NCBI GenBank assembly: GCA_020348925.1
Contig: CP070758.1
Span: forward strand, 3,859,688-3,923,687
Reading direction: 5' to 3'
Source of the DNA: Gemmatimonadota bacterium
GTDB taxonomy: Bacteria; JBHIER01; G020348925
Length of the DNA stretch: 64,000 bases
The notes beneath the pieces were generated by a model. The model was not told where the DNA came from and did not search any database. It saw only the letters and a list, made by a program, of their open reading frames with translations. Shown here piece by piece: positions 1-13,964 of the stretch. The stretch's first letter is position 1; the number at the start of each line of letters is the position of its first letter. The position numbers and the translations under genes were made by a program.

Positions 1-3000
1 TCGTCATCGACTCCCCGGCGGACCAATCCTCGCCATGCCGTCTGCACCTCAGCGGTGACGTGCTCTGGGTCTCCGGCCGCCTCGAAGACAGGACGGCGCT
101 TGTGCTGCTCCTGGTGATGCGGAAACATGGCGACGAAAAACTCGCTCCAGCCTCCCATGCGCATCCGCACCAGATCGTAGCGCTCCGGAAAGCGCTGCGC
201 CTCCTCCAACGTGCTGGGGTCCGCGCAACTAATCGACATCATGTTCGGGCCGATCTTCCCCTCCGCGAACTGCCGGATCAGTTCCTTGAGTTGTTCAAGG
301 GGAAAGTTCTCCCGGATGTTGATATCGACCGGAGAACCGCACGACAGGCCCACGCCTATGGGATCAGTATGCGCGGGATCGTCGTATGCTGTTTTACCCT
401 CTGCCCAGGAGTGCAGGGATTTTATCGCCACTCGGCCGCGCGCGGGCACGGGGAGATCGAGCGGCGTCGAGGAGGGGCTGAAATCCGACGCCACCGTCTG
501 GCCGTTCCGCCGCCCGTCCGCGGACGCTCCCAGGAAGGAGCCCACACCGGCGTAATCCTCGAAGGTTGCAATGCCCGGGGTGATCACGAACTCAAAAGGG
601 CACTCGTCCGTGCCATAGCGGCCGCGCAGGATCTCCAGCTTTTCGGAAATCGGGTTCTTCGGATTGCGGATCAAGTCGTACGCCATGTCTACCAAATCTC
701 TCACCACCTTACGCGCGAAGCGGTCCACCTCCTCATGTCCCTGACCGAACTTGGACAGTCCCAGGGCATAATTGCGCAAATGTTTGAAGCGCTCGGCCTG
801 CACGGCAATCCGACCCTCACCGATCGTGCTGCTATAGAACGGTTCTTTCATGTCATAGCCCCAGTTGCAAATGAGGCAATTTACCAGCTCTGGCAAGGTG
901 AATACCGCCTCGTTGCTGAAGACCATGTGCCGGATGGCCCACAGCGAGTCGATCGCGGTTGCGATACCACTCATCAACGGCGAAAGCAGTTTATAACGAG
1001 CGCCGCCGGCTGTCAAGTCCCGGCTCCGTTCCAAGCAATCGTCGATCAGCGCTGAGAGTAACGGACTCGGACATACCTTGCTTAGATTGCCATAGCGCGA
1101 AAGCATGCCGTTGTAAAAATCGATCAGCTTGTAACGATAATGCTCGAGGAAAAGCTCGTAGAACGCTTCCCAACTATCGATTTCTTCCGCCGGTTTCGAG
1201 TGGAAAGACGCCTTGAGACCCGTGATGTGGATGGGTCCCGCTGCGGCGTACGTGCGACCTCGGTTGAGGGCCATCTCGATGGCATCTGGAACCGGCACAA
1301 AGGAGAAAGCAAACTCGTTCTTGCCGGCCATGATGGTCTCGAAACATCCATCGCAAACCATGTCGCGGGCATCCGCGAGATCTACAACGGTTCCGGTCTC
1401 GATGATCCCCTCACCACTTCGCAACAGCCCCGCAATGATCTTGTCGTCGTTAATGAGGAAGGGGTGTCCTCCACCGGAAAGGACGCAACGAGCAGCTTCC
1501 TCCAAGACGTCGTCCGGCGTATCGGGGTGAACTCTGAGCGACAGACAAGGCGCGTTCAATGGCAGACGCCGAGCTGCACGGAGGCACATGCGGGTGACCG
1601 CGTTGCACCCGTCCTCCGGGGTCTCGGCGTCGTTTGCCTTGCAGCCCCCTACGGTGATCTGCTGCACCCATTGGTTGAGGGCAGCACCCTGGGGGAAGTC
1701 ACCACCCTCATACGTAATGGCTACGGAGCCGCGGGATAGCCTGTCGTTGAAATGCCGGTGATTCAACAGAACCTGTTCGTCCATCTTGATCCAGAAACAG
1801 TCGATGATTTCCTGGGCCTCGTCCGGTGTGATCCTATCGGCCTCGTAGAAGGGCGCGAGAAGCTGATCCAGTCGACCAATCGACACGGACTCTCCTGCGA
1901 TGTGCATGCAGCAATGCATACTGAATACGAGCTGAGCAGCTTCCACAAAGGTCGTCGGGGATTCGTTCGCGAGCTTCTCCATCCGCTGGGCAATCGACTT
2001 CAGGTTTTCCCTGTCATGCTGGGAGCCGTACCGCATACCAGAGAGTATTCCTCGCACCAGAGCTGCGTAGTTGCGCATATAGGTCTGCACTCCCTCGAGC
2101 GAATAGATGACGGACTGAAAGAACTGCTCCACCTCAGTATCCGACGCGTTGGCGCGGAGGCGCTCTGCTTCGTCGAGGAGACCTCCGATTCCCTTCTCCA
2201 GTAGTCGATGGTAGTTGGGTACGTTGTGGCCTGCCGCACCCCCCTCGCTCAGCTTCATTACGAACGCCTCGGTTCGCTCGTCCTCCTGCAGGTAATGCAT
2301 CACCTCATACCCCGATCCGAGGGTGTAATCCGGCACTACGCCGACGATGATCTCTTTGGGATGGATACGGTATGTGCCGAATCTGCGACCGGGCTCTTCA
2401 CTACTCAACAGTTCCAACGTCTTCTTGACCGCGAGCCCCTTGCGCTCCGCCACGGAAACCTTCAGCAAGTGCTGGTCCTTTTCATCCAGGTAGTCCTTCA
2501 GGTGGCCGAGTTCGGGTGCCGCTCGGCGCCGGTACCAGGTATCGTGCCATCGGCTAAACGTGTATCCCAGAAGCTCGATAACCCGGTCGGTGGGATGCGG
2601 CTTGAGGTCGATGGCGCGGTTGCCCACACGATAGAGATAGTCCTTGGTGTTGTAAAACATCAATCCATTCTCGCTGCGGATATTGAAGAATTCGTTCATC
2701 AGTACGGTCAGAGTGCGATGCGGCGCAGGCAGCTCGAGCTCCAGAGCACTGGGCACGTACCAGTGGTTCCCCAAATCGGCATGCGATACATTGAGGTGGC
2801 GACACTTGATGTAATGTTTCTCGTCTCCAATCATGTTCTGCAATACCTCGACGAAGGTCATAATGCTTTTGGCATAAGAGATTTGATAGATACCGAGTTC
2901 TTTTCCTGGGCCGATTTTCGCCGAACGATCGGGGGGACTTTCTTCCTCAACGCGGTACTTGACTCCGTCCTCGCCATTGTGTCGAACGAGCTTCATGTAG

Positions 3001-3845
3001 CGATGAAAGGGCTGACTCTGCCCCACCAGGCGATAGTTGACCCCGTCCGGGTCATTGACGCGAACCAGCTTGACGTGCGCTCGCTCGTCGTCGTTAACGA
3101 TTATGTTGCCGCCGTGATCGCGGCCAATCAAGTTCTCGAGCTCGCTGTCCGCCATGCCTAATAACTGTTGCCAGTCATGAATAAATCGCTGCGTGAGACA
3201 GAAGCATCCTCCTTTGTGTTGGGGGAACTCGTCCCCGACGATCGCGCGGGCCGAGAAACCCACCGGGTCTACCGACGAAATCAAACCATGGAGCATCCGA
3301 CCACCGTAGATGCGTCCGCTGTGAAGGCTATCTCCAATGGTGCAGTTTGTCTTCTCCTCATCGATGGCGTCGCCAAGTTCGGCCATAACCCTGTCTGCTA
3401 TTTCTTTCGTCTTATCCTCCTGAAGTGACTTGATTTGGAAGAACAGTTCACCGCCGTCGAGGGCGTAGGGCGGCTGATGGTCTGCCAGAACCTGGTGCAA
3501 CACTTCGCGCCCCTCGAACAGTGCATCGTCCAGGGGAATGGCGTTCTCTTCGCTCCACCGACGCCACTGATCGAAGCTGACGCCGGTCACAGCGACCCAC
3601 ATGAAGTCGCTTTCCTCGGCGGAAGCATGGAGATCCGCCGCGAGGTGTTTCATTCTTGAAAAGCTTAGTGCTTCGGGAGATTTGAAATGTACGGTCAGGT
3701 AAGCGGAGTGCTCCGAGACGAAGGGTATTCCTACCTGGGCGTAACGCAGCGCAATATCTTCAAGATCCCCATCCCGGAAGCGGCGGGAAAGAGCGACGGC
3801 CTTTCTCGACCCTGACAATTTGAAAGCCTGATCTGGTGTAAGCAT
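1..3845 (-). CDS. DyP-type peroxidase domain fused to glycyl radical enzyme (PFL-like); 3'-partial, >1281 aa
   Basis: Hand translation shows a stop-free minus-strand frame from ATG 3845 (AGGAGG 9 nt upstream) to the window edge. N-terminal DyP-like motifs: GGCFCLTQRFIHDW, ENLIGR, RAHVK. GRE motifs: SIGRLDQLLAPFY, QITVGG, Cys loop CDGCFET (Cys codon 1344-1346), GASADGRR, Gly loop RYDLVRMRMGGWSEFF (Gly codon 150-152). Confidence 0.88.
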   Translation of the reverse strand, partial: MLTPDQAFKLSGSRKAVALSRRFRDGDLEDIALRYAQVGIPFVSEHSAYLTVHFKSPEALSFSRMKHLAADLHASAEESDFMWVAVTGVSFDQWRRWSEENAIPLDDALFEGREVLHQVLADHQPPYALDGGELFFQIKSLQEDKTKEIADRVMAELGDAIDEEKTNCTIGDSLHSGRIYGGRMLHGLISSVDPVGFSARAIVGDEFPQHKGGCFCLTQRFIHDWQQLLGMADSELENLIGRDHGGNIIVNDDERAHVKLVRVNDPDGVNYRLVGQSQPFHRYMKLVRHNGEDGVKYRVEEESPPDRSAKIGPGKELGIYQISYAKSIMTFVEVLQNMIGDEKHYIKCRHLNVSHADLGNHWYVPSALELELPAPHRTLTVLMNEFFNIRSENGLMFYNTKDYLYRVGNRAIDLKPHPTDRVIELLGYTFSRWHDTWYRRRAAPELGHLKDYLDEKDQHLLKVSVAERKGLAVKKTLELLSSEEPGRRFGTYRIHPKEIIVGVVPDYTLGSGYEVMHYLQEDERTEAFVMKLSEGGAAGHNVPNYHRLLEKGIGGLLDEAERLRANASDTEVEQFFQSVIYSLEGVQTYMRNYAALVRGILSGMRYGSQHDRENLKSIAQRMEKLANESPTTFVEAAQLVFSMHCCMHIAGESVSIGRLDQLLAPFYEADRITPDEAQEIIDCFWIKMDEQVLLNHRHFNDRLSRGSVAITYEGGDFPQGAALNQWVQQITVGGCKANDAETPEDGCNAVTRMCLRAARRLPLNAPCLSLRVHPDTPDDVLEEAARCVLSGGGHPFLINDDKIIAGLLRSGEGIIETGTVVDLADARDMVCDGCFETIMAGKNEFAFSFVPVPDAIEMALNRGRTYAAAGPIHITGLKASFHSKPAEEIDSWEAFYELFLEHYRYKLIDFYNGMLSRYGNLSKVCPSPLLSALIDDCLERSRDLTAGGARYKLLSPLMSGIATAIDSLWAIRHMVFSNEAVFTLPELVNCLICNWGYDMKEPFYSSTIGEGRIAVQAERFKHLRNYALGLSKFGQGHEEVDRFARKVVRDLVDMAYDLIRNPKNPISEKLEILRGRYGTDECPFEFVITPGIATFEDYAGVGSFLGASADGRRNGQTVASDFSPSSTPLDLPVPARGRVAIKSLHSWAEGKTAYDDPAHTDPIGVGLSCGSPVDINIRENFPLEQLKELIRQFAEGKIGPNMMSISCADPSTLEEAQRFPERYDLVRMRMGGWSEFFVAMFPHHQEQHKRRPVFEAAGDPEHVTAEVQTAWRGLVRRGVDD

Positions 3846-3955
3846 CGAAAGATACCTCCTTGCATATTCGTTCAAAATGGGGGGCGATTTTGAGTTTCCA
3901 CAAACGCTTGCAGAAGAACCTGTCATTCTCGACAGGTTTCGAAACTATCAGTAAC

Positions 3956-4306
3956 CTAAGCAGCCGCATTTGAGTCTGGTATCATAAGAAAGAATTGTGC
4001 ACCGTGCTGGAGAGGCCCTCCTAAAACGACGTGTTCCGCGGAGCTGTGTGGGCGAAGGAGATAATAATAACCGGATCCGTCGTGACACAGAGTCCGCATG
4101 TCGTCAGCGGACAGCCGGTGCAAGTAATTGATTGGGAAATCAGGATTGAGAGTATGACAAATCGAGTTCTGAGCACGAGGCTCCCTTTCCCGTTCAAAGA
4201 CGAACCTCTCTGACTCATACACTCTGCGGCGTAATCCAAACCACGCTGTGAACGGCTGGAAATCAAGTGCTTCGAATGGTCCCTGAGAGTTTTTTTCTAC
4301 GTTCAT
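3956..4306 (-). CDS. hypothetical protein (116 aa)
   Basis: ORF fills the gap upstream of the DyP-GRE gene on the same strand. Weak RBS and no recognisable motif. Confidence 0.3.
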   Translation of the reverse strand: MNVEKNSQGPFEALDFQPFTAWFGLRRRVYESERFVFEREREPRAQNSICHTLNPDFPINYLHRLSADDMRTLCHDGSGYYYLLRPHSSAEHVVLGGPLQHGAQFFLMIPDSNAAA

Positions 4307-4440: not shown

Positions 4441-5079
4441 CTACAATCCCAATTCCTCGCCAACTATTATCACGGTGATGACCGGCTTATAGGTGTCGTT
4501 ATCAAACTGCCTTTCAATGATAACTGTTTTATTACAAATCCTCCATGGAGATGAACAATCAATGCATTCGCCTGTTTCACCACATGGTGGCATCGGATCA
4601 AAATGTGTATGACGTTTCACATTCAAAGGAGCAGCCGTCGTCCTGATCCTTTCCAGCGCCTCTTCGAGGCTCTTCACAATCTTATTTATTCCTACTATTA
4701 TTAGGACCTGGTCCGGCCCGAAGAGCATGGCGGCGACACGGTTCCCAAGGGCATCCACGTTGACAATTTTGCCGTCCAACGTCAGAGCATTCGTACCCGT
4801 CACAAACACGTCGGAAGTCAATGCTCGCTTCTTAAGCCGCATATTGTCTTCAGCGCTGACTCCACTTTGCCATGGGTTCAGGAAAGTATAGTTGCCCTTC
4901 TCCAGAGCATCGACAAGGCCTATTTGCCTTAATGTAACAGAATCGCCAAATCCAACGATACTGCCCTCAGGAATCATTGAAAGAACCTTCTTTAAAGCTT
5001 GTTTCCCATTCTCCACATAGAGGGCCGAAATATTGTTCTGGTTCAATGTTTCAATCAAACTTGGGATTTCTTGTTTCAT
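4441..5079 (-). CDS. LUD-domain (LutC/YkgG-like) protein
   Basis: VGFGDSVTL, DVFVTGTNALTLDGKIVNVDALGNRVAA, IIVGINKIV and C-terminal Cys cluster (PCGETGECIDCSSPWRIC), typical of the LUD family. Confidence 0.85.
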   Translation of the reverse strand: MKQEIPSLIETLNQNNISALYVENGKQALKKVLSMIPEGSIVGFGDSVTLRQIGLVDALEKGNYTFLNPWQSGVSAEDNMRLKKRALTSDVFVTGTNALTLDGKIVNVDALGNRVAAMLFGPDQVLIIVGINKIVKSLEEALERIRTTAAPLNVKRHTHFDPMPPCGETGECIDCSSPWRICNKTVIIERQFDNDTYKPVITVIIVGEELGL

Positions 5080-5684
5080 TGGTTCCTGTCTTTTATCTTA
5101 GACTCATGGGAAGGAAATTCTCATGAACACATGATGTCATTATCACGGTCCAGCGTCACAAAACACCTGCGCGTTCATGCGTCGGGTGAATTTGTTATTG
5201 GGGTCCTCTCCATGTTTTCTTCCGTGTATGTATGTTGCCTCGATAGCTTTCACTTGCGTGTCGCCAATATGATAGTAAGATGCTTGTCCTTCGATACTGC
5301 TGCATCTCCTGAGCCTTCGCCGAGAAATGCTTGATACCCGAGATGTCGAAGAGTACTCGGAGTACAAGAGATCATGACAAACCTGCCTCGAATCGATCCT
5401 TCAACGGCGGTGTTCGAGTAGTACCATCTTCTTCCTCATTAGGAACAAGAATCAGACGGCCTGTGAGCCGAGCGGCCTTTTGCAACCAGTTCGAGAGTTC
5501 CTTGTTGTGAGGAGATCGAATTCCCCAGGTCATCAGTCTTGTCAATGAGGTTCCACGTGCCGTCAATACGAATTCATCGGTAGAGTCTGTCTCCAATCCA
5601 GGGAATGGGCCTATCGTACCAAAGCACCACCGCCTCAATTTGCTCCACCATCCAAAATGTTATTCATTCGTTGAATTTAATCTA

Positions 5685-5713
5685 AGTATATGAAACATTT
5701 TGATAAATGTCAA
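5685..5713 (-). promoter_or_regulatory. sigma70-type promoter
   Basis: Minus strand TTGACA-17 nt-TATACT. Confidence 0.6.
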
Positions 5714-5923
5714 GGAAATTTCTTTCAATGTCGTGAATATTGATGAGGGTTATGACTTCTGTCCTGCATGACTCGCTACTGAGACTCAGAGTCACGGAGA
5801 CACGTAGCAAACAGTCTTTAGCTTTCCATGTCTGGAATCAATGAGGATAAGTGGTGGAAACTCAAACCTATTTTAAAACTCCGCCCTTGCCGACATCAAA
5901 GAAGTGAAGGCAGGAACTAGGCC

Positions 5924-5959
5924 AAAAGGGCGGCTGCAGAGAAAGCCGCCCTTTCTTTT
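5924..5959. terminator. intrinsic terminator after RDD gene (possibly bidirectional)
   Basis: AAAAGGGCGGCT...AGCCGCCCTTTCTTTT inverted repeat with A and T tracts. Confidence 0.75.
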
Positions 5960-5987
5960 GAACGCTGTAAAGAAGAAACAGAATACT

Positions 5988-6563
5988 TTATGATGTAATC
6001 TCGATGACACGCGTCCCGGCGATCTTGTCCCCGATCCGCTCGCCGTTTTCGTCAGTGATGACGAGAATAACCTCGATGATGATGGCAACGAGATACAAAA
6101 CGGCCCCGATGATCCAGCCGACAACAGGAATCACCATGAAAATCATGGGGATTATGAAAGGGAGATTGCGCTTGATCGACAAGACGTAATCACACCGCTG
6201 GCCTGTCTCAACCATGACAGCTCTGAGGTTCAATAACTTTTTACCCAAACTCTGACCGTCAACCGGTTCGAAGGTGAACCCATCGCGCAAAGCCATGTAG
6301 GCAGCCCCAATGAGCCACCCAATGACAGGGATCAGACCGACGATGTAGCTGATGACAATGTCGATAATCGCCGCAACCGCCCTCTTCCCGATGTCGGCTT
6401 TGGCCAGCTCCTGTGGTGGTGTCGGCTCACGATCCCCCTTCTTCTCCGCCGGTTTCATTTCCGCCGGTGCTTCCTCTTTTTTCTGAGACTCTGCAGGACC
6501 CTCTTTCTTTTGAGCGGACTCTGCTGTTTGGGAAGATTCTTCTTTCCGTTCCTCTTCAGCCAT
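5988..6563 (-). CDS. RDD family membrane protein
   Basis: KRAVAAIID, GQSLGKKLLNLRAV and RIGDKIAGTRV motifs. Start moved to ATG 6563 behind AAGGAGG. Confidence 0.88.
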   Translation of the reverse strand: MAEEERKEESSQTAESAQKKEGPAESQKKEEAPAEMKPAEKKGDREPTPPQELAKADIGKRAVAAIIDIVISYIVGLIPVIGWLIGAAYMALRDGFTFEPVDGQSLGKKLLNLRAVMVETGQRCDYVLSIKRNLPFIIPMIFMVIPVVGWIIGAVLYLVAIIIEVILVITDENGERIGDKIAGTRVIEITS

Positions 6564-6610
6564 AACTGTCACCTCCTTAAGAAACTCTGAATAGTGTTAT
6601 TCCTTCCACT

Positions 6611-8371
6611 CTACTCAAACAAATCCACAATTTGAAATGTATTCACATCCACCAGCCCTTGATCCGTCACTTTCAACTCAGGTATGACCGGAAGGGCCAG
6701 AAATGAGAGTGTTGTAAAAGGACTGTCCAATCGAACGCCCAAATCCCTTGCAGCCTGATGCACACGATCGAGCCCCTCGCAGACTGTTTCCAAAGGCTGA
6801 TCGGACATGAGACCGGCCACAGGCAACGGAAGTGACGCTCCAACGTCTCTGTCCGAGACCACCACAAATCCACCACCCATCCTCCCAATCTCTTGGACCG
6901 CTCTGACCATATCACCGTCGTCCACACCGACGACAATAACGTTGTGCGCGTCGTGGGCCACCGACGATGCCAATGCTCCCTTCTTGAGACCGAATCCGTT
7001 TACGAGAGCAAGTCCTATATTGCCCGTTCCACTGTGTCGTTCAATAACAGCTACTTTTAAAACATCCTCCTCCGGATCAGAAACGATTGTTCCAAGTTCC
7101 GTTTTGACATCCTGAACAAGATGTCTCGTAACGATCTGATTCTCGATAAGCCCGATTACTCTTGCCTTTGACCCATTGGCTTCAATTCTGAAGCTGTCCT
7201 CAGAGAGGGGCGGCAGGTGCACGGACTCGAAAACAGTATCGCTGGAATAAAAGGGAATATCACTTTTTATCAGACCTTCTTGAGCGACTATCTGGCCGGA
7301 CTTGAGAACAGTCTCAACATGAAATTCCTTCAGGTCGTCAACGACAACAAGATCGGCAATATAACCGGGTGCCACAGCCCCACGTCTCTTCAAACCGAAA
7401 TATTCCGCCGGATGTAACGTCACGAGTTGGACCGCCATCACAGGATCAAGTCCTAAAGAGACTGCCTTTTGTAGAATGTGGTCCATATGGCCTTCGACCC
7501 GCAGATCTTCCGGATGCCGGTCATCCGTGACGAATAGACAACGCCTCGAAGTGGATGCATTGATAACCGGGAGCAGCTCAGCCAGGTTCTTGGCGGCCGA
7601 TCCCTCTCGAATCATCAGCCGCATCCCCAACCTCAGTTTCGCCTCGGCCTCCTCCCGTGTTGTGCATTCATGATCGGATCCAATTCCCGCTGTGACATAG
7701 GCATTGAGCTCCGGACCCGCAACCCGGGGGGCATGACCATCGATGACGACCCCTGACTTGGAAGAGATCACGAGCTTCCCCAGGACTTCGGGTGTTCCGA
7801 AGATGACGCCGGGAAAATTCATCATCTCCCCCAATCCAAGAACCCGATCGTACTTGAGAGCCTGCGCGATCTCATCCTCCCCCAGGGAAGCGCCGGCCGT
7901 CTCCAGGAGTGTGGCCGGAACGCAGGAGGGAACCATGACGAAAACGTCCAAGGGAATTCCCTCGCTGGCCTTGAGCATATACTCGATTCCGTTTAATCCC
8001 AAGACGTTGGCGATCTCATGAGGATCGATGACGACCGCTGTCGTTCCACGAGGAACAACGGCCCGGGCAAACTCCGACAGCGTCACGTGAGAACTTTCCA
8101 CGTGGACGTGCCCGTCTATGAAGCCTGGTAGTAAATACTTCCCCTGGAGATCGAGAACCTGCTTCCCCTCCGTGTAGGACTCCCCAATGCCGGCTATGAA
8201 AGCACCACTGACGACCACATGGGATTCGCGCACTTCACCGCAAAACACATCAACCAGACGAGCGTTCTTCAACAGAAGATCGCCGGGCTCATCACCGCGT
8301 GCCACGGTGATGCGGCGTTTCAAATCCTCCACAGAAATGTCTGTGCCTGTTCGTTTTCCAGCGGTACTCAT
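6611..8371 (-). CDS. ade: adenine deaminase
   Basis: PGFIDGHVHVESS, GLGEMMNFPGV, DGHAP, SDHEC, IREGSAAKN, TDD and SSVAHDAHN motifs. Confidence 0.95.
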   Translation of the reverse strand: MSTAGKRTGTDISVEDLKRRITVARGDEPGDLLLKNARLVDVFCGEVRESHVVVSGAFIAGIGESYTEGKQVLDLQGKYLLPGFIDGHVHVESSHVTLSEFARAVVPRGTTAVVIDPHEIANVLGLNGIEYMLKASEGIPLDVFVMVPSCVPATLLETAGASLGEDEIAQALKYDRVLGLGEMMNFPGVIFGTPEVLGKLVISSKSGVVIDGHAPRVAGPELNAYVTAGIGSDHECTTREEAEAKLRLGMRLMIREGSAAKNLAELLPVINASTSRRCLFVTDDRHPEDLRVEGHMDHILQKAVSLGLDPVMAVQLVTLHPAEYFGLKRRGAVAPGYIADLVVVDDLKEFHVETVLKSGQIVAQEGLIKSDIPFYSSDTVFESVHLPPLSEDSFRIEANGSKARVIGLIENQIVTRHLVQDVKTELGTIVSDPEEDVLKVAVIERHSGTGNIGLALVNGFGLKKGALASSVAHDAHNVIVVGVDDGDMVRAVQEIGRMGGGFVVVSDRDVGASLPLPVAGLMSDQPLETVCEGLDRVHQAARDLGVRLDSPFTTLSFLALPVIPELKVTDQGLVDVNTFQIVDLFE

Positions 8372-8378
8372 CGCTCCC

Positions 8379-9677
<1,299 letters not shown>

Positions 9678-10214
9678 TCAATCAATATGATTTTTTAATT
9701 CTATATACCCAATGTACGGTAAATTCCTAAATTGCTCATCGTAATCCAGGCCATATCCGACGAGAAATCGATCCGGGACTGTCATTCCAAGGTAGTCTAT
9801 GTTGACCTCTGCGGCATGCCGATCGGGTTTGTCCAGAAGGACGCACGTTTTTAAGCTCTGCGGCTTTCGCTCCCATAACGTCTCCAGAAGAAATTGCAGA
9901 GACAAACCCGTGTCAACGATATCCTCGACAAGAAGAACCTCTTTGCCCTCTATCGAGTCTCTCAGATCTGAGACAAGGGTTATTGTTCCCGAACTCTCCG
10001 TCCCGGATCCGTAACTGGCCACGGCGATGAAATCGGTCTTCACCGGAATGGTCAGGCGACGGACAAGGTCGGCCATAAATATCCAGGCGCCTTTAAGCAC
10101 GCCGACAACATGGAGAACCTTGCCGTCATACTCTGACGAGATCTGTCGCCCAAGCTCCCTCACCGTGCCGTGTATCTCGTCCTCAGAGATCAGAGGAATA
10201 ACGTTACCGTTCAC
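9678..10214 (-). CDS. hpt: hypoxanthine phosphoribosyltransferase
   Basis: GVLKGAWIFMADL, SYGSGT, VLLVEDIVDTGLSL and VGYGLDY motifs. GTG start at 10214 inferred. Confidence 0.95.
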   Translation of the reverse strand: MNGNVIPLISEDEIHGTVRELGRQISSEYDGKVLHVVGVLKGAWIFMADLVRRLTIPVKTDFIAVASYGSGTESSGTITLVSDLRDSIEGKEVLLVEDIVDTGLSLQFLLETLWERKPQSLKTCVLLDKPDRHAAEVNIDYLGMTVPDRFLVGYGLDYDEQFRNLPYIGYIELKNHID

Positions 10215-10647
10215 TGGGATGCCTCTTCTCCACATTATCCGGGTCAAAGACGAAGGGTTTATAAAGTCGCATGCGGACCGGCTTTCCATCAAGGATGGCG
10301 GGCGTGAATTTCAACTGCCGGGCTGCATTCAAAGCAGCCTGATCAAGACTTGTCACACCGCAGCTGACCGACACCTCTGCCTCCTCAACAAGACCCTCCT
10401 TGCTCAGAATCATCTTGATATGAACGGTTCCCCCGATTCCCGCATCCAACGCCTCCTTGGGATACTGAACTTCCAGCGGATTAATCTGCCGCGGCATCTC
10501 GTCCACAATATGGTAGAGACTATCGGAATCACCCGCAGGAGGCGTGTGAGACTCCGAAACGTCATCTGTTTTCGACCGTCTGCCGAAGTACAACCCCGCT
10601 GTGGCCAGCACGACCAACGCCAACATGCTCCAAAGAATTCTTTTCAC
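10204..10647 (-). CDS. short energy transducer TonB-family protein
   Basis: N-terminal TM anchor, then YPKEA...G.GTV...LDQAALNAARQLKFTPA..DGKPV (TonB C-terminal domain). GTG start at 10647 inferred from RBS. Confidence 0.85.
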   Translation of the reverse strand: MKRILWSMLALVVLATAGLYFGRRSKTDDVSESHTPPAGDSDSLYHIVDEMPRQINPLEVQYPKEALDAGIGGTVHIKMILSKEGLVEEAEVSVSCGVTSLDQAALNAARQLKFTPAILDGKPVRMRLYKPFVFDPDNVEKRHPSER

Positions 10648-10705
10648 GTATCTCTCCCCCCCTATGGACTGCATTCAGACATAATGGATCCCGACCAAAC
10701 ATTTC

Positions 10706-10734
10706 ATGTTAACATAAAAAATGTGAATTGTCAA
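10706..10734 (-). promoter_or_regulatory. sigma70-type promoter for tonB-hpt-purA-ade
   Basis: TTGACA-17 nt-TAACAT. The -10 lies within the palindrome ATGTTAACAT (10706-10715). Confidence 0.55.
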
Positions 10735-10836
10735 GAAAAAAGTGTCGATCGACACATTTTTCCCTTCGAAAAATTCGCTCATACTTCACATGCTTCCCTG
10801 CAACCAATTTGATAGAGGTCGGCTTGCGTTGCTCTC

Positions 10837-13960
<3,124 letters not shown>

Positions 13961-13964
<4 letters not shown>

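Follow-up and report, generated by a model that had tools for sequence, protein, structure and literature searches.

Glycyl radical enzymes (GREs) are regarded as strictly anaerobic and as dependent on activases of the radical S-adenosylmethionine (SAM) type. The stretch of DNA considered here (the window; 64,000 nucleotides, positions 3,859,688-3,923,687 of the single 5.04-Mb contig of a Gemmatimonadota genome) encodes at its left end, at ~3.86 Mb, a protein in which a GRE-type barrel of the pyruvate formate-lyase (PFL)-like family follows a heme domain with the fold of dye-decolorizing peroxidases (DyPs). Proteins of this architecture have been described before, in two papers that we cite from excerpts of their text. 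Zamocky et al. reported a fungal ‘DyP-PFL’ in 2016, calling its significance ‘elusive’; H2O2 and peracetic acid induced this gene more than any other in its host, and horizontal transfer of DyP-PFL from proteobacteria was proposed (PMC5041501). Yoshida and Sugano named the DyP ‘subclass P2’ in 2022, termed it ‘unexplored’ and suggested a role for the DyP domain in protecting PFL against H2O2 (PMC9719856). The excerpts of both papers describe the architecture, and no activity assigned to DyP-PFL was found in the literature searched, outside of which lay most subscription journals. This bears out an earlier, sequence-only reading of the window, which noted that such fusions had been annotated elsewhere without an assigned activity.

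Like subclass P2, the protein of the window is a single chain that has a DyP domain of class P (B-type) at its N-terminus and a PFL-like one at its C-terminus. Unlike subclass P2 as published in the excerpted text, it shares with its whole clade a His and a non-Arg residue at the distal pair of the heme pocket, and by its alignment it is a new pocket variant inside a published, uncharacterised architecture. Our best reading, with a probability of roughly 0.4, is that of a self-lighting radical eliminase, in which the heme domain would stand in place of an activase.

The fusion gene lies on the minus strand, where a stop-free frame extends from window position 3926 down to 3 and beyond the left edge; in the genome it continues for 10 further codons and a stop, ending 30 nt beyond position 1. 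There are two candidate start codons, ATG 3926 and ATG 3845, and a Shine-Dalgarno-like AAGGAGG stands only before the latter (at 9 nt). The database copy P0002 (1291 aa) likewise begins at 3845, and from this start the full protein has 1291 aa. Residue numbers below count from ATG 3845, and those of alignments built on P0001 run 27 higher. The more than 1281 stop-free codons claimed in the sequence-only reading are thus 1291 open ones, and its Cys834 (codon 1344-1346) and Gly1232 (codon 150-152) proved exact; it had the domain order right and missed the minus strand. The fusion escaped the list of open reading frames (ORFs) solely because its ORF runs off the window edge. Its features are as follows.

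1-3845, minus strand: coding sequence of the DyP-GRE fusion; ATG at 3843-3845, last 10 codons and stop outside the window

3855-3861, minus strand: ribosome-binding-site-like AAGGAGG, 9 nt 5' of ATG 3845, read from the sequence; none for ATG 3926

2727-3779, minus strand: DyP-fold heme domain, core ~residues 23-373 (modelled fold to ~385), from Pfam Dyp_perox_C, phmmer against the Protein Data Bank (PDB), and AlphaFold2 with Foldseek

3288-3290, minus strand: His186, at the distal Asp position of DyPs (DypB Asp153, GXXDG motif), from the family alignment with a Nitrincola anchor

3075-3077, minus strand: His257, proximal heme ligand position (DypB His226), from alignment; 120 of 120 listed homologues

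3021-3023, minus strand: Gly275, at the distal Arg position of DyPs (DypB Arg244), from alignments

2907-2987, minus strand: 27-residue insertion, residues 287-313, from alignment and the AlphaFold2 model

72-2714, minus strand: PFL-like barrel of glycyl-radical type, residues ~378-1258, from Pfam, phmmer against the PDB, and Foldseek of the homologue P0046

1338-1352, minus strand: Cys loop Asp832-Gly-Cys834-Phe-Glu836, eliminase-type thiyl-radical loop, aligned to Cys433/Glu435 of glycerol dehydratase

147-155, minus strand: Gly1231-Gly1232-Trp1233, glycyl-radical loop position, aligned to R-V-a-G-Y of two solved GREs

The fusion feature is real, and its identity and architecture are secure. 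Contigs from two sequencing runs (X1 and X2) span the domain junction with 0 indels, both runs coming from one study that is possibly the source of the window itself; two other runs, X3 and X4, gave short pieces only. No misassembly at the junction, a concern raised in the sequence-only reading, was revealed, and the same architecture was found in 120 of 120 listed homologues. Apart from this, DNA matching the host was seen in sediment metagenomes of five studies; X1 and X2 were the only runs in which over half of the sampled words occurred, and no RNA run was among those listed.

The N-terminal part had been read as DyP-like over roughly its first 370 aa, and the DyP fold is now confirmed over residues 1-385. 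Dyp_perox_C, with 36.8 bits, clears its cut-off of 20, while the NCBIfam model TIGR01413 reaches 57.4 bits and stays below its cut-off of 100.5; a PDB search with the first 420 residues gave DypB and further B-type DyPs at E ~1e-14. An AlphaFold2 model of residues 1-393 (predicted local distance difference test, pLDDT, 89.8; predicted template modelling score, pTM, 0.91), in which the two ferredoxin-like alpha+beta domains of the DyP fold are predicted, was compared by Foldseek, and all of the 50 ranks listed are DyPs, with template modelling (TM) scores by target of 0.71-0.82. The best PDB matches were DtpB (E 6.9e-20, TM 0.81) and DypB. The domain resembles DypB of Rhodococcus jostii RHA1 and DtpB of Streptomyces lividans (PDB 3qnr, 6yr4) in its fold (TM 0.74-0.82) and its aligned proximal His, and differs from them in its low identity (~20%), in having His186 and Gly275 for Asp153 and Arg244, and in an extra hairpin of 27 residues. 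DypB and DtpB, as the excerpted literature has it, are stand-alone proteins, some of them encapsulin cargo, unlike the heme domain of the window, which is fused to a barrel of ~900 residues. The hairpin, a beta-hairpin in the model that is present in some His-type members only, echoes the strand motif that precedes it, and such a repeat makes it look like a local duplication.

As for the C-terminal part, Pfam PFL-like matches it at E 1.9e-107, and Gly_radical reaches 16.1 bits, under its cut-off of 22.2; together with the Dyp_perox_C score, these are the profile results that the sequence-only reading had asked for. Among solved structures, its best matches are 1,2-propanediol dehydratase (E 1.9e-48), glycerol dehydratase (1.4e-44) and CutC (PDB 9rco, 1r8w and 5fau, spanning E 1.9e-48 to 1e-36), with YbiW and PflD also found. 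With the PFL2-type GRE eliminases, the barrel shares a Cys loop of the G-C-x-E form, the Gly loop (R-M-G-G-W of the fusion falling on R-V-a-G-Y of two solved GREs) and a residue equivalent to His164 of glycerol dehydratase. The aligned residues of glycerol dehydratase (Cys433/Glu435, the Gly loop and His164) presumably have catalytic roles, and the His164 counterpart is conserved in the fusion barrel. In a set of 40 diverse members (identity to the window protein 39-83%), no variation was seen at Asp832, Gly833, Cys834, Glu836, Gly1231, Gly1232 or Trp1233, nor at the further aromatic residues Trp94, Trp225, Tyr398, Trp433, Trp437, Tyr518, Trp726 and Trp995. The Gly-Trp pair was seen in 64 of 66 translated loci, and the ORFs of the remaining two do not reach that position. 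What these alignments have shown is an apparently complete GRE barrel of the dehydratase/eliminase (diol-dehydratase/choline-lyase) type. This agrees with the earlier remark that the single-Cys GCFE loop is not the Cys-Cys motif of PFL, G-C-x-E being of the eliminase/dehydratase type in the PDB alignments.

Membership of a characterised GRE class, a possibility raised in the sequence-only reading, is ruled out by the NCBIfam equivalogs. Those for PFL, CutC, glycerol/propanediol dehydratase, HypD, IslA, HpsG/HpfG, 4-HPAD and indoleacetate decarboxylase all gave 13-176 bits against cut-offs of 994-1150 (for CutC, 148 bits vs. 1050), and TIGR01774 gave 226.3 bits against 678.2. The fusion also departs from PFL2-type eliminases in having no adjacent activase, a Gly loop of G-G-W instead of x-G-Y/F, an added heme domain and many aerobic hosts. 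The PFL-like ten-stranded fold of the barrel is predicted from a model of the His-type homologue P0046 (1181 aa; 49% identical), which matches whole GRE chains by Foldseek (TM 0.77-0.79; 0.76-0.79 for the dehydratases and CutC); the values for the full-length model (pLDDT 90.4, pTM 0.92) indicate a fixed, compact arrangement of the two domains. YbiW and PflD, GRE dehydratases of phosphorylated anhydro-sugars (PDB 8id7, 8id0), resemble this homologue model at TM 0.77-0.79, but they are more distant in sequence (E 1e-38 to 3e-26) and nothing indicates a common substrate.

The heme pocket is where the window protein departs from described DyPs. The distal columns were fixed through a homologue from Nitrincola, whose F-T-D-G falls on F-V-D-G of DypB (Asp153) and whose Arg falls on Arg244. 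By this alignment, neither catalytic distal residue of DyPs is present in the window protein, His186 standing for Asp and Gly275 for Arg, while the proximal His257 is invariant in all 120 aligned listed homologues. A census of 186 sequences (120 database proteins and 66 locus translations, partly overlapping sets) gave Asp+Arg in 104, Glu+Arg in 17, His with Gly, Thr, Ser, Ala, Asn or Pro in 63, and a gap in 2. Mixed pairs, that is, His+Arg or Asp/Glu with a non-Arg residue, occurred in none of the 184 ungapped sequences. The His-type sequences form a monophyletic clade (support 0.998) in a FastTree tree of 181 non-identical rows: their 61 tips descend from a node with 62 tips, of which the extra one is without its N-terminus. 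Among the named genomes, this clade was found only in anaerobe-type lineages: an Acidobacteria metagenome-assembled genome (MAG), Desulfobacca, a Methanosarcinales MAG, Ca. Scalindua and the genome of the window. Such a pattern is that of a pocket that is under selection and not decaying, being a clade-wide conserved alternative with the heme ligand intact, and it shows that the distal Arg can be lost in a DyP fold that keeps its heme ligand. According to the excerpts of PMC9719856, every DyP subclass keeps the distal Arg, and P2 varies only from Asp to Glu; since the Arg is called universal there, the His/non-Arg state is absent from that scheme as excerpted. The general statement of the sequence-only reading that DyPs use H2O2 is not simply transferable to the window protein, because His186 and Gly275 replace the distal Asp and Arg.

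The fusion itself is widespread. The homologue search gave 436 proteins at E<=0.001 among 8000 scored, and both Pfam domains are present in each of the best 120 that were listed. Relatives are encoded in 227 stretches of genomes (one genome per GTDB species), 77 of which were fetched as loci. The window protein is 39-45% identical to named bacterial members over 93-95% of its length. A search for split forms, aimed at shorter proteins matching the DyP part, gave seven short pieces; as candidates for stand-alone genes these were rejected and read as fragments, six lying on contigs of <=5.6 kb and one, of 140 aa, on a 29-kb contig. Among the homologues, the comparison has shown an obligatory fusion, the two domains being always joined. 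The hosts include Collimonas, Ralstonia, Pseudomonas, Massilia, Archangium, Actinoalloteichus, Kordia and Chitinophaga, all of them aerobes. The family has paralogues, given that two fusion-type PFL-like genes each were seen in an Acidobacteria MAG (G001), Archangium violaceum (G015) and Vitiosangium (G045).

The genome of the window seems to be of the anaerobe type. No heme-copper oxidase was found in it (96% complete, single contig), nor was there a match to dsrA, and the idea of a sulfate-reducing host was rejected on the latter ground. None of the 40 nearest genomes in the collection searched holds the fusion gene, a result that is little informative since 39 of them are related at the level of the domain only. 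The remaining one belongs to the same family, which places the host in a deep and sparsely covered lineage.

If the barrel were lit in the ordinary way, a radical-SAM activase would be needed, and we might expect its gene to keep company with the fusion. None lies within 10 kb downstream of the fusion or in the first 14 kb of the window, and none adjoins the fusion in the 73 usable loci described below. The genome of the window does hold two matches over cut-off to the activase family TIGR02494, at 4,741,998 and 1,349,879. Each of them adjoins an ordinary GRE-like gene (4,743,578 and 1,344,865) and not the fusion. The two ordinary genes, whose frames are open over 876 and 804 aa, lie in the regions ~1,344,865-1,350,673 and ~4,741,998-4,745,218 of the contig (G000:C1).

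A similar association emerged from a survey of 50 genomes from among those of the 77 loci, picked by eye with a preference for long contigs (27 were left out), at a threshold of E<=1e-10 (the TIGR02494 cut-off is 174 bits). TIGR02494 was over its cut-off in 3 of the 50 and within the threshold in 9, and NrdG was above cut-off in none. Ordinary-length PFL-like genes (PF02901) occurred in five genomes (G002, G026, G027, G032 and G048), and in all five a TIGR02494-type match lies within ~2 kb of such a gene. Of the 45 fusion-only genomes, many of which are MAGs, 41 gave no TIGR02494 match at the threshold; three of the other four gave weak ones (45-51 bits) and one, G044, a good one. In this exception, a Saccharothrix reached through locus L083, the match (contig C91, 4706-5281; 147 bits, 181 with in-frame neighbours) is not on the contig of the fusion, and a search for ordinary PFL-like genes gave none there. 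No activase match was seen in three of the five His-type genomes (G001, G003 and G004, all incomplete MAGs). Overall, activases were shown to accompany ordinary GREs and not the DyP-PFL-like fusion.

Taken together, these observations favour self-lighting at the level of the family, because the fusion is obligatory, its radical and heme residues do not vary, activases go undetected in most fusion-only hosts, many hosts are aerobic and the fungal homologue is induced by peroxide. Of the three roles that the sequence-only reading had considered for the heme domain (to protect, to sense for or to generate the radical), comparative genomics favours the putative generation of the radical for the family as a whole. 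In such a scenario, the heme domain would take over the job of the radical-SAM activase: an oxidised heme or protein-radical state would pass an oxidising equivalent via aromatic residues to Gly1232 and Cys834, and the resulting thiyl radical would initiate 1,2-elimination from a small hydroxylated molecule, yielding an aldehyde. The substrate might be freed by neighbouring phosphoesterases of the phospholipase D (PLD)-like and haloacid dehalogenase (HAD)-like types, e.g., as the head group of a phospholipid or as a phospho-alcohol. The aerobic branch would use H2O2 as its oxidant, in a canonical Asp/Arg pocket. The His186/Gly275 pocket of the window's branch would require another oxidant or another heme chemistry; there, the distal His may serve as an acid-base catalyst, or the heme may be a His/His-ligated electron relay, this being the least certain step of all. 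It is tempting to go further and to regard DyP-PFL-like fusions as a third way to light a barrel of the PFL/ribonucleotide reductase type, via an attached heme and workable in aerobes, with the His186/Gly275 clade as its anaerobic re-tooling (for another oxidant or as an electron relay) feeding a new eliminase that acts on a breakdown product of phosphoesters or phospholipids. This fuller picture is tentative, and we consider it less likely than the self-lighting that forms its core.

Class I ribonucleotide reductase offers a functional analogy, and only that. It has a related ten-stranded barrel whose catalytic thiyl radical is lit by a radical derived from a metal cofactor and not by a glycyl radical with its activase. 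The proposed metal-derived lighting of a radical barrel is alike, but there the radical source is a separate di-metal subunit and here it would be a fused heme domain.

Several considerations weigh against a self-lighting eliminase. We know of no heme-lit glycyl or thiyl radical enzyme, and since O2 destroys glycyl radicals, the persistence of such a radical in aerobes is a problem. The anaerobe-type host, without a detected heme-copper oxidase, has two activases that could act in trans. As many of the 50 surveyed genomes are incomplete MAGs, a missing activase match does not amount to proven absence, and the choice of these genomes by eye, with long contigs favoured, counts the same way. The sub-threshold Gly_radical score belongs here too, as does the phosphoesterase link, which is seen in fewer than a third of the loci and leaves the substrate a guess. 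With respect to the pocket, DypB R244L is tabulated with 100% inactivation and D153H with a 6-fold loss (table of a review, PMC13234801, cited from excerpts), and by analogy with these variants a His/Gly pocket should make a poor classical peroxidase. A putative PFL activase was found in the fungal host (PMC5041501). For the protein of the window, the case for self-lighting is therefore weaker than for the family and not settled, considering its anaerobe host, the two activases and a pocket that lacks both Asp and Arg.

Of the other explanations, the one that survives best is an ordinary activase-dependent GRE, in which one of the two radical-SAM activases of the host would act in trans to place the radical on Gly1232; its heme domain would be an accessory, either protective (scavenging peroxide or O2) or a redox or gas sensor that gates activity. 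The two over-cut-off activases of the host and its apparent lack of a heme-copper oxidase suit it, as do the Gly loop, which retains the Arg-hydrophobic-x-Gly-aromatic pattern of two solved GREs, and a proximal-His/distal-His pocket without Arg, which would be more like the ligand-binding or sensor hemes than like peroxidases. The putative activase reported from the fungal host and the H2O2 protection proposed in PMC9719856 point the same way. Yet both host activases are paired with other GREs, no activase-type match was seen in 41 of the 45 fusion-only genomes, and the three His-type MAGs mentioned above lack one as well. Its protective-peroxidase version is further weakened for the His clade, since a pocket without the distal Arg should scavenge peroxide poorly. 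All in all, this explanation is the main rival, somewhat less probable than self-lighting.

Less probable still is a barrel that is no longer radical-active, in which case the protein would be a heme enzyme or heme-binding protein with a PFL-like module for substrate binding, scaffolding or regulation. The many aerobic hosts and the majority of hosts without an activase would be accounted for, together with the sub-threshold Gly_radical score and the 226 bits of TIGR01774 against 678. However, Cys834, Glu836, Gly1231, Gly1232 and the His164 counterpart remain invariant among sequences that are only ~40% identical, which makes catalysis at the Cys/Gly site hard to deny, so that we regard this possibility as improbable. 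Finally, an artefact, be it two genes misassembled or joined by read-through, or a pseudogene, is hardly credible: the cut of the ORF by the window edge was the sole concern in its favour, and against it stand the open frame of 1291 codons, the colinear architecture in the 120 listed homologues and the 227 matched stretches of species genomes, and the contigs of two runs that cross the junction without indels.

What the self-lighting reading would mean goes beyond one genome. A barrel with all its radical residues kept, always joined to a heme domain, is present in many aerobes and in fungi, and an activase is undetectable in most of the hosts searched; this raises the question of whether a heme cofactor can install or replace a glycyl radical. 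If so, GRE-type C-O, C-N and C-S eliminations compatible with oxygen would come within reach, which would be useful in biocatalysis, and the published ‘unexplored’ DyP subclass would gain a function. The phosphoesterase link narrows the first substrate candidates.

This link comes from the neighbourhood of the fusion. Neighbours were taken as ORFs of >=70 aa (called by our own script), clustered by BLASTP, each cluster being named from the Pfam result of one representative. Of 78 loci, 73 gave a usable fusion ORF, and L040, L052, L066, L088 and L093 were dropped because an antisense frame had been picked. The phosphoesterase-type families within three ORFs of the fusion, and the two genes that follow it in the host genome, are listed below.

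PF04185 phosphoesterase: 13 of 73 loci, within three ORFs of the fusion

DUF2608: 9 of 73 loci, within three ORFs of the fusion

DNase II: 4 of 73 loci, within three ORFs of the fusion

PLD-like: 4 of 73 loci, within three ORFs of the fusion

Metallophos: 1 of 73 loci, within three ORFs of the fusion

Type I phosphodiesterase: 1 of 73 loci, within three ORFs of the fusion

Genome 3,857,690-3,859,555 (L005 15691-17556), minus strand, outside the window: PLD-like gene, 621 aa, with two PLDc_2 stretches (Pfam E 1.1e-21)

Genome 3,856,768-3,857,601 (L005 14769-15602), minus strand, outside the window: 277-aa gene with HAD-like motifs

Any family of this type occurs within three ORFs of the fusion in 23 of the 73 loci (union). 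In the host of the window, the PLD-like gene and then the 277-aa HAD-like gene lie downstream of the fusion, all three sharing one strand and being separated by 102 and 88 nt. Together with the eliminase-type loop, the phosphoesterase context suggests a hydroxylated head group or phospho-alcohol as substrate and an aldehyde as product. Such a neighbourhood is compatible with a GRE, because YbiW and PflD show that GRE eliminases accept phosphorylated substrates.

The 277-aa HAD-like gene is also found 3' of the fusion in Desulfobacca. Three homologues, P0014, P0017 and P0028 (1552-1565 aa), have extended, similar C-terminal tails, on which Pfam recognised no family; that of P0017 (residues 1285-1561) is homologous to residues 12-273 of the 277-aa protein (BLASTP E 4e-16). 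NCBIfam gave nothing useful for the 277-aa neighbour or for another one of 202 aa. An assignment of the 277-aa protein to DUF2608 was not supported by hhalign (probability 1.3%); an atlas feature score of 0.91, TM of 0.57/0.70 and motifs alike by eye are a lead only. In eight further loci, a 427-aa protein stands 3' of the fusion; it has no match in Pfam, NCBIfam or the PDB, and its atlas lead to histidine phosphatases is only 0.88-0.91.

In the Methanosarcinales MAG, a gene for aldehyde:ferredoxin oxidoreductase (L020 4532-6487, plus strand) lies directly 3' of the His-type fusion, followed by a calcineurin-like phosphoesterase; the oxidoreductase fits an aldehyde product. Three other loci (L028, L030 and L079) have a small protein (157-191 aa) and an oxidoreductase of the glucose-methanol-choline (GMC) family 3' of the fusion. 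Some GMC oxidases produce H2O2, and such a neighbour would suit a peroxide-driven partner.

On the other side of the fusion, the window holds at 4441-13964 (minus strand) genes for a LUD-domain protein, an RDD protein, adenine deaminase, adenylosuccinate synthetase, a phosphoribosyltransferase, NAD-dependent DNA ligase and a DUF362 protein with 4Fe-4S domains, which are housekeeping or anaerobe-type genes without an evident tie to the fusion. Directly upstream of the fusion lies a 116-aa ORF (3956-4306, minus strand) with a weak match to Cupin_5 (DUF985; E 4.3e-5, 24 bits, cut-off 25). Clear Cupin_5 genes adjoin the fusion in L042, and the same cluster is present in L021 and L027.

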